Source: an uncultured Planctomycetaceae bacterium (GTDB taxonomy: Bacteria; Planctomycetota; Planctomycetia; Isosphaerales; Isosphaeraceae). From it: a stretch of DNA of 64,000 bases. How positions within the stretch are numbered: position 1 is the stretch's first letter; each line of letters begins with the position of its first letter. Positions 1 to 4,685 of the stretch are shown here, piece after piece. Under the pieces are notes generated by a model. The model was not told the origin of the DNA. It did no database searches and saw nothing but the letters and a program-made list of their open reading frames with translations. The stretch is from contig CAWIAD010000001.1 of NCBI GenBank assembly GCA_963833985.1, forward strand, positions 3,232,001-3,296,000, given 5' to 3'. The position numbers and the translations under genes are program-made.

Positions 1-2149
1 CGGCGAGCGAAATGCTCATAGGCCATGCGGGCGTTCAGGTCGGGATCCTCGGGCTTCTCCTTGACCTGCCGCTCGAGCACGGAGAACTTGACCGGTTTCT
101 CCTCGTTCACCCGGGTGCGGATCGTCTTCACGACGCTGTCGAGGTAGACCAGGTATTCTTTCTCGAAGTCGGACTTGGCAACGCCGAAGCATTCCTTGAT
201 GGCCCGGTCGGTGGTGAGGCCGCGGCGATAGGCCATGAGCATCTTGATGAGCGCATCATCGCCGAACCGCTGGAGCATATAACGCGCGTAGAGCTGGGCC
301 TGGCAGTACGCCAGCTGGCGGTCTTCGGGCTCGTTGGGGCGGATGAACCCGAGGTTGATCGTGTCCAGGTTGAGCAGCTTGGATCGGCCGGGAACGCGCT
401 CCAGGAGCATCTTGTTCCACTCCTGGGGCCGCGGGTAGCCCTCGCTCTCGACGGCCAGGGCCTCGGTATACCAGTGGGGGATATTGAATTCCGTCTGTTG
501 CAAGGTGATGACGTGAACCACCTCGTGCTTGAGCACCCGGGCCCAGTTGAACGCCTGACGGGTGGCGCGCGGACTGGCCAGCGCAACGACCTTGCCTGTG
601 CAGGCGCCGACGGTGGGAATGAACGGCAGGCCGATCGTCCGGCCGCTGAACCACTGGTGATTCTTCATAATCTCGATCTTGGTCTTGCCTGGCGGCGCGT
701 AGCCGAAGCGCCCGGTGAGCTCCTGGTAGACCGATTCGAGGTACCGCCCCATGTACTTGCCCAGCAGGCTATCCTGCGTCGGATCGACCAGCACGCTGTA
801 ATGCGGCGTGTCGACCGGGATGTACGATTCCATGTGCTTGAGCACTTTCATCATGTTGTCGGCGCGGACGTTGAACGGGTCGGCGGCGAAGGCTTCATCG
901 AACAGGCTCCGCGCCTCGGTCTCGCGACCAATCTGCATGTAGAGCATGCCGAGGCCGATGGGGGCGTCGGCGCGGGTCGGGTCGGCCTGGGCGGCTTGCA
1001 GAAAGGCACGTTCGGCTGCGTGGTACTTGCGGCGGTCTGCCAGCCGTTCGCCGAGGGCGGCGTAGAACGCAGCCGGCCGGCGCGTCTGGGCCAGCACCTG
1101 GAGTTCGGCGGCGCCGCGCCCACGGGGTCCACCAGCAGCCGACACGAGGCCGCCAGCCGACCCAGGGTGTCCTCGTCGCGCGGGTTCTCTGCCACCGCCT
1201 TCTCGGCCGCCTTGCGGGCGTCGGTGAATCGCTCGTCGGAGATGTTGAGATCGCACAGCAGCACTTGCGCAGGGCCGTAGTGCGGATTGACCGCCAGCGC
1301 CCGCTCGGCCTTCGCCCGGCCGGCGGCCAGCCGGTAACCTTGCAGGTCCGCCTGGCCGAGCGTCACCAGAATCTCTGAAGCCAGCGGGTTGATCTGCTGC
1401 GCCCGCGCCAGCTCCTTCATGGCGGACCGCTCGTTGTAGCCGGCGAGGAAGAGCTTCCCTTCCAGCCATGGCGCCTGCCAGCAATTCGGATCGGCGCGGA
1501 GGGCGGCCTCGTAGATCTCGTTGATCACGTCGTTGAGCGAATCGGCCAGCTCTTCCCCGCGCGCCGTGGCGCGGTAATAGCGCTCGGCGGCCTGGCCGAC
1601 CAGCAGCAGGTTCTGCGCGTTGTTCGCCAGGTCCGGCGGCCGGCTGTTGTAGTGATCCACGAACCACTTGCACCCCTTCACCGCGTCCTCCAGCCGGCCG
1701 CGGGCCTCGAGCAGCCGGACGGCGATCCAGCGCCCACGCAGATGGTCCGGGCTGACGTCGAGGCATCGCTTCACCTCGGCGTCGGCTGCCACCCAGTCAC
1801 CTCTCTGGAAGCCGAGCTCGGCCAGCCGCGCCGCAACGTCCGCATTCTTCGGCTGCCGCGCGGCCAGCGCCTTGAGGCCCTCGATGGCCTTGTCAGCTTC
1901 GCCCTGGCTGGCCTGGCACTCGGCCTTGCCCAGCGCAATGGCCGCTTCGAGCTGGGGTGTCAGGCCATCCTTCTGCTTCTTCGCCTCGCTCTCGGCAGAC
2001 TGGTAGGCTTCCTGGGCCTCGGCATAGCGGCCGTTCTGCAACAGCCTCCGCGCCTGCTCCATGAGCTTGGCTTCCCCCGCCGGTTTCCCGGCCGGAGCCG
2101 CCGCCTGGGCCAGCACCGCCAGCACGGTCATCGCGATTGTGTATGTCAT
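1..2149 (-). CDS. Secreted TPR-repeat protein with Peptidase_MA-like zinc metallopeptidase domain (frameshift ~1115; runs off window start)
   Basis: ORF 851-2149 has a signal peptide and TPR-like helices. After a frame change near VDPVGAA the read continues ...FNWARVLKHEVVHVITLQQTEFNIPHWYTEALA (HExxH plus downstream E) to the window edge. Confidence 0.8.
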
Positions 2150-2440
2150 CCTGTCTCCTCCGGAGTTTGCTCAAACTCAACGTTACCAAAGCCCGGCGTG
2201 GAATGGCACCTCGCGCGGTGAAACGGCAGCCATTCCGTCGGCATGCGCCGTTACGCAAGTGGAGCTCCCGTTCTGGCCGCCACACAGAGTTTACGACGGA
2301 ATGGTCCCGGTCTCGCCATTCCTTCTCCAGCGACCTGGTCGATTGAGCCGGAATCCCACTCACGCCGACAGTCGTTGCGACCCATCCCGACCACGCCGTG
2401 GCGACACGGTGCTTCCCTCATTCGATCACGAGTCTTCACT

Positions 2441-2652
2441 GTGTCTCAACCGTGCGACCCCTGCGCAACCTGCGATTCGGACTGCTGGCTCTTCAGAATG
2501 GGTTGATCAGCCCGGGCCAGCGACTCACAGCCTTCCGGTCCTGGACACTCGAGAAGACCAGGACACTGGCCGACCTCCTTGAAGCGAGCGGCAACCTGGA
2601 CGCGGACGACCGCGGGGCCATCGAGGCCCTGGAGGCCCGGGATATAAAGCGG
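2441..2652 (+). pseudogene. N-terminal fragment of a planctomycete Ser/Thr kinase gene
   Basis: RNLRFGLLALQNGLISPGQRLTAFRSWTLEKTRTLADLLEASGNLDADDRGAIEALEAR aligns without gaps to the N-terminus of the kinase at 20351 (RSLLFGLLALQNGIIHQAALVAAFQAWTLAKDRPMAEILAEQGALDADDHALLESLVAR). No kinase domain follows. Confidence 0.8.
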
Positions 2653-2742
2653 AGTAGCTTTGCCGCGCAAGCAGCTTCGAGGCCACCAAGGCCAGATTCT
2701 TCTGGCGCAGACCGAGGCAGCGGCAGTTCGTACAATGATGTG

Positions 2743-3180
2743 ATGGCACGAAGACCATCTTTCTGCCACGGGATCAAGCGGGTCAAGATCTGCGCATGGC
2801 CCGCTGATGCCGTTGCGCCCGAGGAGCTTGCGAAGCAGGTCACCTATACAGGGAGCCCGAGGCACAAGACATACCCGTCACCAGCCGGGCCGCCGGCAAA
2901 GAGAGCTGACGCGGCCAAGTGCGACAAATACGCGACCCCCGACTGGCCCAAGCTCGGCTGCGCCCTTCGGAAGGCGATTCGGGCAGGGTGCGTGAGTGAG
3001 TTCCGGGGCAGGTTTCCATTCCGCGCATGGGTCTGGATTAATGGTGTTCTGCACGAGGCCCGGCTCACGAATGAAGTAACAGGCGACTATCACGGCTTTC
3101 CGCTCAATGACCCGAGTCAATACCCTGAACCACTTGAGCAAGTGGAGGCCGCACCGCGTGTCGAAATTCCTGTCGCTTAA
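2743..3180 (+). CDS. Small hypothetical protein (145 aa), putative two-histidine nuclease/toxin
   Basis: ATG at 2743, 6 nt after TACAAT. Motifs YTGSPRHK, KCD, FPFRAW, HEARL, GDYHGFP. Overlaps the next gene. Confidence 0.75.
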   Translation: MARRPSFCHGIKRVKICAWPADAVAPEELAKQVTYTGSPRHKTYPSPAGPPAKRADAAKCDKYATPDWPKLGCALRKAIRAGCVSEFRGRFPFRAWVWINGVLHEARLTNEVTGDYHGFPLNDPSQYPEPLEQVEAAPRVEIPVA

Positions 3181-4486
3181 GTCCGATCCCATCAGCCAAC
3201 CTGCCGCCGAGGATCCGCTCGAAAGGCAGAGCTGGTGCTCTCTGCGCATCCAGGTGGGGTCGCGCTTCGCATCCCGCCTCTGGGACAATACGCTTGAGGA
3301 CGAAAGGGACTTCCTGGATGTACCTGCATTCTCAATCGCCGAGTGGCTGGTCAAGAACTGGTGGTCCCTCTTTCACGAACTCTGCCCTGCGAACACAGTT
3401 CCAAAGCACCAGGTTCTTGGATCTTCGTGGCTGAGCTGGATAAGGCGCCATTGCCTTCGCTCCGCTGACTCGTCATTGTTTCTGCCCAAGCTGTATATCT
3501 ATACCGATGGCTACGACGTTCTCGCGGAATCCCATTCCGATCGGCCGGGATCGCTGCCGAACATGCCCGGTGAGTTTCTCAATGATGGAATTGTGGTGCT
3601 TGATGCCTGTGCTACCGAGGCAGCGCTGGCCAATTTTATCAATCAGATTCTTAATCGCGTTGAAGGAGTTGACAGCGAGCGGGTCACACGGGCGGCCGAA
3701 CAATGGCAAGCGATTCAGAATGCTGACGCAGCCGAGGCGGAGTTCTGTAAGCTGGCGGGACGGATGGGGCTGGATCCATACGACCCCCATGAGGTGTCCG
3801 ATCATCTCGCTGGCTTCTTCGAAGTGCTCGGAGACCCAGACCAGCCCCTGGTTCGCGATTTAACCGAGGCGACAAAGCCGGAATCGGTCGAGGCGCAGTG
3901 GAAATGGGTAACAGATGCCATCCACGAGCTTCATCTAGGCCCTCGATCGATCGAACTACCGTTCGACCTCCCTGTCGGTAACCGATCTCCTGCGGAATAT
4001 GGATACCAGCTTGCTCGGCGGGTTCGGGCTTCCGCTGAGGTTTCAGATAACCCGATCAAATCCGTTGAAAAAACAGCAAGCGCAGTAATAGGAAAAGCCT
4101 TCGAGGTGGTTGGCAGAAATCATATTCCTGGCCAAGAGATCAAAGCGATCGTTGGGCAAGCCGATTCCCGCAGGTTCGTCGTCGCTGGTCCGCAGAATCC
4201 GGTGTTCTACAATCAACGATTCATGACCGCTAGAGGCCTGTTTCATGCCCTCGCGACAAGCCAGCGAAGCGAAAGACTCGTGACCGGGGCCTACTCGTTG
4301 GATCAAAAGGCCTCTCGAGCCTTTGCCGCCGAATTTCTCGCCCCTCAGCAGGCGATCCTCAACAGGTTGACGAGAAGCATAGCGGATCCTGAAGCGGTTG
4401 ACAGCCTCAGCAGAGAATTCCAGGCCAGCTCTTATGTGATCCAATGGCAACTGGAAAACGCCGGCGTTACGCTCTCGTCCGATTAG
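3158..4486 (+). CDS. Hypothetical protein with C-terminal ImmA/IrrE (Peptidase_M78/DUF955)-like domain, HExxH degenerate
   Basis: GTG at 3158 with GGAGG 9 nt upstream. C-terminal QRFMTARGLFH ... QKASRAFAAEFLAP ... LSREFQAS..VI matches the IrrE-type RF..AHELGH / A..FAAEFL.P / LA..F.VS pattern. Confidence 0.8.
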   Translation: MSKFLSLKSDPISQPAAEDPLERQSWCSLRIQVGSRFASRLWDNTLEDERDFLDVPAFSIAEWLVKNWWSLFHELCPANTVPKHQVLGSSWLSWIRRHCLRSADSSLFLPKLYIYTDGYDVLAESHSDRPGSLPNMPGEFLNDGIVVLDACATEAALANFINQILNRVEGVDSERVTRAAEQWQAIQNADAAEAEFCKLAGRMGLDPYDPHEVSDHLAGFFEVLGDPDQPLVRDLTEATKPESVEAQWKWVTDAIHELHLGPRSIELPFDLPVGNRSPAEYGYQLARRVRASAEVSDNPIKSVEKTASAVIGKAFEVVGRNHIPGQEIKAIVGQADSRRFVVAGPQNPVFYNQRFMTARGLFHALATSQRSERLVTGAYSLDQKASRAFAAEFLAPQQAILNRLTRSIADPEAVDSLSREFQASSYVIQWQLENAGVTLSSD

Positions 4487-4685
4487 ATGCTCTGCGGCTG
4501 CTGGCCTTCACAGCATCTTCCCACTCCCATGAGCACCGAAGCAGTTCGTACTCGAACCCCCGGAATCGCAAGCACGGATGCAATGTGGAGCCCGGAATTC
4601 TGGTTCTTGCAAGAGGTGGCAGAAACGAGCGGAGAAGGAGTGAGTGGCTCCGCCGTTGCGTTTGATCATCCCGTTCACCCTGCGA

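Follow-up and report, generated by a model that had tools for sequence, protein, structure and literature searches.

RosmerTA (toxin RmrT and Zn-peptidase antitoxin RmrA) is the described system to which the locus considered here is best compared, since it likewise consists of two genes encoding a toxin and a partner with an ImmA/IrrE (M78) domain (Ernits et al., PMC10440598; Millman et al., bioRxiv 2022.05.11.491447). RosmerTA-type antitoxins are named as proteases in the passages of these papers that deal with them, which give no account of neutralisation or release of the toxin by the protease domain. The pair of interest lies in a stretch of 64,000 nucleotides (nt), referred to below as the window, from an uncultured Planctomycetaceae bacterium (assembly GCA_963833985.1, contig CAWIAD010000001.1, positions 3,232,001 to 3,296,000 of the forward strand). 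Gene 1 (2743..3180, plus strand) encodes 145 amino acids and is predicted to specify a BECR-fold RNase toxin; gene 2 (3158..4486, plus strand) encodes 442 amino acids from a GTG start at 3158 and is the predicted antitoxin. The two very probably form a toxin-antitoxin (TA) pair, and this pair likely represents a RosmerTA-like family that has not been described before.

Under the explanation that we favour, and which in its entirety we hold to be moderately probable, the locus is a type II TA system. Gene 1 would be a BECR-fold RNase toxin whose active cleft would be covered by an immunity-like N-terminal domain of gene 2, acting as a plug together with the linker that follows it, and the IrrE/CapP domain of gene 2, which lacks zinc-protease residues, would have survived as a binding module. 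A trigger such as phage infection, acting through this dead domain, would then release the toxin. The scheme predicts a division of labour within gene 2, in which a distinct domain resembling immunity proteins neutralises the toxin and the M78 domain acts as the switch. The presumed toxicity of gene 1, the putative trigger role of the dead domain and the possible anti-phage function of the pair enter it as conditional parts, and the folds and the interface on which it draws are predicted ones. The case for phage defence as the main role of the pair is evenly poised.

Gene 1 is preceded by a -10 box, TACAAT (2731..2736, plus strand), 6 nt ahead of its ATG at 2743. It overlaps gene 2 by 23 nt, and the GGAGG ribosome-binding site of gene 2 (3144..3148, plus strand) lies within it. 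These features had been pointed out in a preliminary description of the locus and can be read directly in the sequence. A TANNNT motif ending 5-7 nt before the start codon was found at 20 of 61 toxin loci, at exactly 6 nt in 18 of them, compared with a mean of 2.0 and a maximum of 6 in a shuffle control; the 61 loci include close kin, and their start codons were picked by rule. Many distant toxin loci have no such box. Judged from the sequence, the transcript of the pair is likely to be leaderless.

The preliminary description had treated the two genes as one module, and their homologues do co-occur almost strictly. Searches at E<=0.001 returned 334 homologues of gene 1 and 165 of gene 2; a few of the latter carry ImmA/IrrE labels and the remaining homologues of both genes are unnamed. 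A search with gene 2 yielded 82 loci in metagenomes and viral contigs. There is room upstream at 61 of them, and in 60 of these gene 1 lies beside gene 2, the sole exception (L086) being a truncated partner. From the toxin side, 29 match rows among 121 genomes of the order correspond to 24 places, all 24 of which have gene 2 or a remnant of it directly downstream. The pair therefore shows type II TA features in its coupled two-gene operon and its strict co-inheritance, contact between the two proteins being a prediction of the model described below. The partner is broken in seven places, at five of which the toxin is split too, at one partial and at one (L175) intact; sequencing errors may explain part of these, since several of the assemblies are incomplete. 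A single intact partner with no toxin gene was also seen, right behind a housekeeping gene (L173 4512-5867, G405:C179).

The candidate toxin

Conservation of gene 1 was assessed on 85 sequences thinned at 70% identity. His41, Cys60, Pro92 and Trp96 are invariant, Glu105 and Tyr116 are each present in 83 sequences, Lys42 in 78 and Arg107 in 72, and Tyr35 is also conserved. The preliminary description had drawn attention to an early SPRHK (His41, 2863-2865) and a late GDYHGFP (His117, 3091-3093), which are both present, and had taken their His residues as a feature shared with BECR toxins. The early His is kept in every relative, but the late one is not invariant. Conserved His and basic residues (His41, Lys42, Arg107 and His117) nonetheless occur early and on the last strand, as expected of BECR RNases. 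In the model of gene 1 (predicted local distance difference test, pLDDT, 81) an antiparallel sheet comes after a helix, with the helix at residues 69-80, short strands near 84-87 and strands at 94-99, 102-110 and 115-121. A structural search placed YxiD first (Z 4.7, root mean square deviation (rmsd) 3.1, 81 residues aligned) and MafB2 second (Z 4.2); seven of the top 10 rows are toxins of the contact-dependent inhibition (CDI), Maf or LXG type, in addition to RelE and HigB2, and BrnT is also among the low-scoring matches. The nuclease-like fold suggested earlier may be present: BECR RNase toxins fill the best rows, with the two Ntox50 proteins YxiD and MafB2 at their head, although at weak Z. 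His41 and His117 are 76 residues apart and the late motif reads HGFP; the early and late His of YxiD are H447 and H528, 81 apart, the latter in HxVP (PMC12700104), and those of MafB2 are H335 and H409, 74 apart (PMC9970974).

Taken together we consider gene 1 probably to be an RNase toxin, in which His41 and His117 would form the acid-base pair; by analogy with YxiD and MafB2, tRNA would be its likeliest target. An RNase activity is something we infer, because the protein is not an Ntox50 member by sequence and the fold matches are weak: the Ntox50 (PF15542) Pfam model gave no match at E<=1 for the gene 1 product or for 18 aligned members of the family. Several further points count against the assignment. 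Position 117 is His in 75 of the 85 relatives and Lys in the other 10; a best Z of 4.7 is in the range that the tool calls uninformative; Foldseek, with a limit of E<=0.001, returned no match for gene 1; neither the protein nor the alignments built from it could be placed in a family by Pfam, NCBIfam, PADLOC or PHROGs; and the invariant Cys60 has no explanation under a BECR mechanism. Comparison with solved structures by sequence gave chance matches only, and the clusters nearest to gene 1 in the ESM Atlas are unnamed and of low recognition value. Two single members of the family matched ribosomal protein L22 (E 0.003-0.02), which was taken as chance.

The invariance of Cys60, found in all 85 relatives and in all six proteins of the sister lineage described below, could instead indicate that gene 1 is some other enzyme, or a metal or redox switch built on Cys60 with His41, Glu105 and His117. 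In that case the two genes could encode an enzyme together with a protein that regulates it, and an sPC4L domain in gene 2 would sense single-stranded nucleic acid; sPC4/Whirly domains have been proposed as sensors in Menshen and Shedu (PMC12065111, in the part dealing with these domains), and the fold scores of gene 1 are, as noted, weak. Against this, those weak matches point to a single superfamily, the distance between the two His is in line with Ntox50 toxins, and the N-terminal domain of gene 2 is acidic and predicted to be occupied by the toxin. We regard this alternative as very improbable, and an RNase toxin as the preferred reading of gene 1.

Fusion of the gene 1 domain to secretion carriers, as in polymorphic toxin systems (CDI, Maf, LXG and Rhs) with their C-terminal toxin domains, was considered and rejected. 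None of the 8 longer matches among 8,000 candidates has a carrier domain (a blank being weak evidence by the tool's own account), and these matches are N-terminal extensions or frameshift-like joins of toxin and partner. In four database proteins (P0247-P0250) a single frame runs through toxin and partner, which suggests artefacts of frameshifting, though some may be natural fusions.

The partner: predicted plug and inactivated protease domain

The gene 2 model (pLDDT 93) has three parts, all on the plus strand: an N-terminal domain (residues 1-165, 3158..3652) with a putative CdiI-like sPC4L/Whirly fold, an acidic helical linker (residues 166-270, 3653..3967) and a C-terminal IrrE/CapP (M78) peptidase-like domain with a helix-turn-helix (HTH) (3968..4483). 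The N-terminal sequence IAEWLVKNWWSLFHE, which had been described as unrecognised, is present as reported. The predicted structure of the domain resembles CdiI immunity proteins. VIA-align aligned residues 1-164 with CdiI of Burkholderia dolosa (5FFP) at Z 7.3 (rmsd 3.7, 132 of 155 residues aligned), and CdiI of Enterobacter cloacae (4NTQ_B) followed at Z 4.9; identity to the two structures is 7-8%. The domain was compared as part of the larger model. The first of these scores stands well above the other rows for the domain, yet is less than 8. Both CdiI structures belong to the sPC4L fold (PMC9424270, in the passage that classifies them). Residues 1-165 are alpha/beta, and the N-terminal HTH that is common although not universal in RosmerTA antitoxins is absent. 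The ESM Atlas gave no usable match for the first 200 residues.

A complex of gene 1 with gene 2 residues 1-260 was modelled with a score of 0.87, the best of 3 controls reaching 0.07. Of 157 solved complexes 116 attain the mark set for this score, as against 2 of 215 mismatched pairs; these figures are only approximate for alignments built as here. The runs share at least 95% of contacts, and the partner has a pLDDT of 91. In the model, loop 104-108 and strand 53-55 of gene 2 contact toxin residues 56-58, 105 and 119, with the loop predicted to lie in the toxin cleft, and linker residues 192-196 hold the basic N-terminal arm of the toxin (Arg3-Pro5). The toxin side of the interface includes His41, Cys60, Glu105 and Arg107. 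The toxin is basic (pI 9.2), and in gene 2 both the N-terminal domain (pI 5.0) and the linker (pI 4.4) are acidic. The model supports binding of the N-terminal domain and linker over the conserved cleft of the toxin. It covers gene 2 up to residue 260 and does not bear on the C-terminal domain. An antitoxin role for gene 2, as first proposed, therefore stands as a prediction, with the blocking assigned to the N-terminal domain and linker and not to the pseudo-protease. Three considerations temper this view of the N-terminal half: a Z of 7.3 is below the level at which the tool is comfortable; the same fold occurs in single-stranded nucleic-acid binders, with Whirly and PurA rows at Z 4.4-4.5; and the complex score may partly reflect likeness, because a CdiA-CT/CdiI complex with the same immunity fold has been solved (4NTQ).

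The relationship of the C-terminal domain to known structures is closer. Residues 271-442 match CapP (7T5T) at Z 14.3 (rmsd 3.1, 159 residues aligned), PprI (8SLN) at Z 10.2 and the transcription regulator PrpR at Z 8.7; the match to Pfam M78, at E 0.032, is below the cut-off. The preliminary description had read RFMTARGLFH as an M78 motif without the first His and the catalytic Glu, and the loss proves to be general and wider than was then stated. None of 98 gene 2 relatives has an HExxH, and the third zinc ligand is lost as well. In the window the broken motif (RGLFH, 4232..4246, plus strand) has Arg359 in place of the first His and Gly360 in place of the Glu, a register fixed by alignment to the intact HEFCH and HEICH of sister proteins. 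The first His is Arg in 92 of the 98 relatives and the Glu is Gly, Ser or Ala in 82, while the second His is kept in 56. The third ligand is Gln383 (Gln in 96 of 98) and the Asn that follows it is Arg387 (Arg in 97). Arg290, Arg354 and Thr376 are also conserved, in 97, 93 and 92 relatives respectively. On these residues the domain is catalytically dead. One long-branch partner of the dead lineage (L013 385-1878, G245) keeps the Asn of E-x-x-A-N and reads RDLHE, and may represent a stage on the way to the dead site.

That the dead domain has a regulatory binding role is fairly probable. It would not be the sensing of single-stranded DNA (ssDNA) seen in CapP and PprI, which was considered and rejected: gene 2 ends after the HTH with no GAF domain, and the position of the groove Arg is variable. 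This Arg lies seven residues before the first His (R85 in PprI and R90 in CapP, in the relevant parts of PMC10904395 and PMC13228613), and the corresponding position 352 of gene 2 is Ser in 36, Asn in 26 and Gln in 11 of 98 relatives. The missing features weigh against a sensor of the described kind. A different role has been considered in which the same TA pair uses the dead IrrE-HTH region as a DNA-binding autoregulator of its own promoter, as in Mycobacterium PrpR, the pair being a selfish or general stress TA system and not one triggered by phage. The domain is basic (pI 9.6), has its HTH at the end and matches PrpR; no separate repressor gene accompanies the pair; and most loci, the window included, lie among ordinary genes. 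On the other hand the equivalent HTH of PprI is partly buried and not promoter-binding (PMC10904395, in its account of that HTH), among the repeats listed no operator-like inverted repeat falls at the promoter, and some copies stand in defence clusters. We consider autoregulation unlikely.

It could also be argued that the C-terminal domain is a structural relic, kept for folding, stability or dimerisation, and that gene 2 functions through its N-terminal half alone. Residues 12-227 of gene 2 contain the whole predicted interface, and in the L175 genome an intact toxin accompanies a partner split near residue 220, although this may be a sequencing error. However, the former active-site residues are fixed at new values in very distant members, and the dead form is one long-lived branch, which would not be expected of a relic. 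This explanation is improbable, and a retained binding module remains the preferred reading of the domain.

Evidence for the history of the dead site comes from six loci (L037, L040, L150, L152 and the plasmid loci L146 and L148) whose partners have the same layout and a complete HExxH with the third-ligand Glu. Likeness to the dead family extends over the whole length for L037 (99%) and L152 (98%) by hhalign and is limited to the C-terminal domain for L040. All six have a small upstream gene, overlapping or adjacent, with Tyr35, His41, Cys60, Leu75 and a late H-[GA]-x-P; pairwise scores of these toxins against the toxin profile are weak (3%, 19% and 51%). Dead proteins fall on one side of a branch with support of 100/99 in a 45-row tree of the M78 domain that retained the motif columns and lost 8 rows, L152 among them. 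Their branch has an approximate likelihood ratio (SH-aLRT) support of 99 in a quick tree of 26 full-length rows, for which the motif columns were taken out and the dead rows thinned to every other one. This separation is favoured by the collection of the dead set with its own profile. A single loss from an active ancestor is suggested because other M78 proteins are active, and since the sister lineage keeps the site with the same layout the dead version has the appearance of a single loss that is old and has been retained. The two lineages amount to a natural experiment, with the same toxin type and N-terminal domain joined in one to an intact protease site and in the other to a dead site that has been conserved anew, and through the active-protease lineage the function of the M78 domain is open to direct test. 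A more tentative suggestion, which we think doubtful, is that they belong to an undescribed anti-phage TA superfamily in which an RNase and an immunity domain, both of the polymorphic-toxin type, are combined with a protease of the IrrE type, with two switch designs: an ancestral one in which a working protease would cut its own antitoxin or another target and so free the RNase, and a widespread derived one, that of the window, in which the dead site, as receptor or decoy for a phage molecule, frees the toxin without cutting.

An M78 protein with an intact HExxH and a different N-terminus was also seen on an Azospirillum plasmid (L147 3834-6026, NZ_CP029830.1) behind a gene for 262 amino acids that looks GNAT-like; toxins of a further class may be combined with an M78 protein here.

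Distribution, mobility and neighbourhood

Among 121 genomes of the order 21 have the pair, as do 6 of the 13 genomes of the genus; for the phylum the figure is 20 of 401 if weak M78-only matches are counted. A single-protein scan of genome contigs gave 1 locus. Copies were found on four proteobacterial plasmids and two viral contigs, and the genome of the window holds a second pair (L029, G000:C2:5254373-5256137) whose toxin and partner are 45% and 39% identical to those described here. One decayed copy, on the Acidithiobacillus caldus plasmid pLAtc3 (L127 5876-6699), consists of a toxin remnant and a partner ending after the N-terminal domain, beside an N-6 DNA methylase gene; it was rejected as a natural antitoxin of the N-terminal domain only, the upstream toxin being just a 42-codon remnant.

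The module is a recent, mobile insertion, patchy among relatives. The flanking genes are adjacent in 7 of 10 congener loci, roughly 70-180 nt apart as opposed to 2.5 kb here, from which it follows that the module was inserted at this site. The DNA missing from the matching congener site extends approximately over 2225..4660 (no strand assigned); the ends are not sharply defined, and a search for terminal repeats bounding the insertion gave only short, chance-level repeats. In keeping with the preliminary description, both genes are richer in A/T-ending codons than their neighbours: G+C content at third codon positions (GC3) is 0.65 in gene 1 and 0.61 in gene 2 against 0.81-0.87 in five flanking genes, the genome having a median of 0.83 and a 5th percentile of 0.66 (2,502 long open reading frames).

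The flanks had been described as minus-strand genes. This holds for the gene to the left, but a plus-strand orphan gene fragment (about 2455..2700) within the inserted DNA sits between it and gene 1. Matches to the fragment occur at 10 other places in the genome with 38-58% identity by tblastn, and at one with 77% over 177 nt by blastn. It presumably represents the N-terminus of a planctomycete Ser/Thr kinase family. It lies just ahead of the promoter, and no such fragment stands beside 16 other copies of the module that were checked. The left-hand gene, which contains tetratricopeptide repeats (756-2149, minus strand), is frameshifted near 1112-1127 relative to the single 474-codon frame of a congener, with 85-86% identity on either side, and is either a pseudogene or an assembly error.

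Enrichment of the pair in defence islands was assessed with a simple gene caller on 226 genes within 6 kb of 35 loci, using PADLOC at E<=1e-15 and excluding three near-duplicate loci. Matches to kinases (PD-T4-6 and others), UvrD/GajB, mad3-only ATPases, CARF, HEAT and RtcR were set aside alike in test and control. Defence-type neighbours were found at 8 of 35 loci and at none of 18 control stretches (Fisher p 0.027). They comprise a type I restriction-modification (RM) system with the pair between hsdS and hsdR (L030), DruE-like and AriA-like genes (L034), SoFic (L038), a type I methyltransferase with PtuA (L104), PtuAB (L110), a type IIG gene (L114), two CBASS cyclases with a type IIG gene (L115) and a methyl-directed restriction endonuclease (L121). 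Two of the four plasmid copies adjoin annotated defence-type genes, one straight after dptFGH, and the other two do not. In part of the family the defence link is real, though modest. Linkage to Ser/Thr kinases was rejected, being seen at 4 of 35 loci but also at 2 of 18 controls. As separate observations on gene order, the pair and two small genes lie inside the type I RM operon on the opposite strand in L030 (5386-12985, G355:C69), and in L115 (1494-4627) the two CBASS-type cyclase genes, which differ in strand, are a few kb away from the pair, and the type IIG gene stands on its other side.

Several points weigh against the defence link. The controls (112 genes) come from just 8 genomes of the planctomycete phylum; a stricter count of 6 of 35 gives p 0.07, and kin are not independent; at 27 of the 35 loci there is no defence neighbour; and two queries against 50,697 phage records gave no match. 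The closest relatives scanned (L001, L047, L055-L058, L076 and L087) have no defence neighbour, and the copy in the window is outside any defence island. The enrichment proposed earlier is therefore present in the family but modest, and is absent for the window copy and its closest relatives.

Relation to described systems

Apart from a weak match of the M78 domain to RmrA, no named system matches the pair, in agreement with the preliminary description. The PADLOC RmrA profiles match gene 2 weakly and in the M78 domain only (best E 7e-5), and none of the PADLOC models, those of RmrT included, matched any of 18 members of the toxin family at E<=1, which is weak evidence given the diversity of RmrT toxins. 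A literature search found no description of the pair, and none is given in the available parts of PMC3482391 or bioRxiv 2026.10.19.760177; supplements and most subscription papers lay outside the search, and NetFlax Dataset S1 (PMC10440598) could list the toxin with an ImmA node.

The antitoxin of RosmerTA is presented in the passages cited at the outset as a protease, often with an N-terminal HTH, whereas all 98 relatives in the present family have a dead protease site and the N-terminus is CdiI-like. The pair has not been filed as a member of RosmerTA because these peptidase and HTH features fail. An M78 domain also stands beside a nuclease toxin in the COG2856-Xre proteins found with PIN or RelE toxins, but in the relevant passages these are described with HExxH kept and an Xre HTH for cleavage, and no immunity-type domain is mentioned there (PMC2701414, PMC5499597). 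CapP/CapH and IrrE(PprI)/DdrO have the peptidase-plus-HTH fold in common with gene 2 (PMC13228613 and PMC10904395, in their structural parts). Unlike CapP and IrrE, gene 2 has no zinc ligands, catalytic Glu, GAF domain or conserved ssDNA Arg, and no repressor partner.

Menshen NsnC contains a BECR domain, PB-BECR1, with a His-Arg-His triad (PMC12065111, in the section describing it), and two of the six sister-lineage toxins weakly match its C-terminal part (E 1e-4 and 1e-3). Menshen, however, is a three-gene ParB/ATPase system according to the same source, and the window toxin has no NsnC match. The top fold matches of gene 1, the Ntox50 toxins YxiD-CT and MafB2-CT, share with it an early His, a late His in HxxP and a similar spacing (PMC12700104 and PMC9970974, in the passages on their active sites). 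Unlike them, gene 1 is a stand-alone cytoplasmic gene, not the tip of a secreted protein, and has an invariant Cys. If the reading offered here is right, the pair would represent a new RNase toxin family and would link CDI-type immunity folds to resident toxin-antitoxin defence. CdiI (5FFP, 4NTQ_B) resembles gene 2 residues 1-165 in the predicted fold and in the predicted role as a plug; in contrast to CdiI, the gene 2 domain is fused to a linker and an M78-HTH region and forms part of a resident two-gene module.

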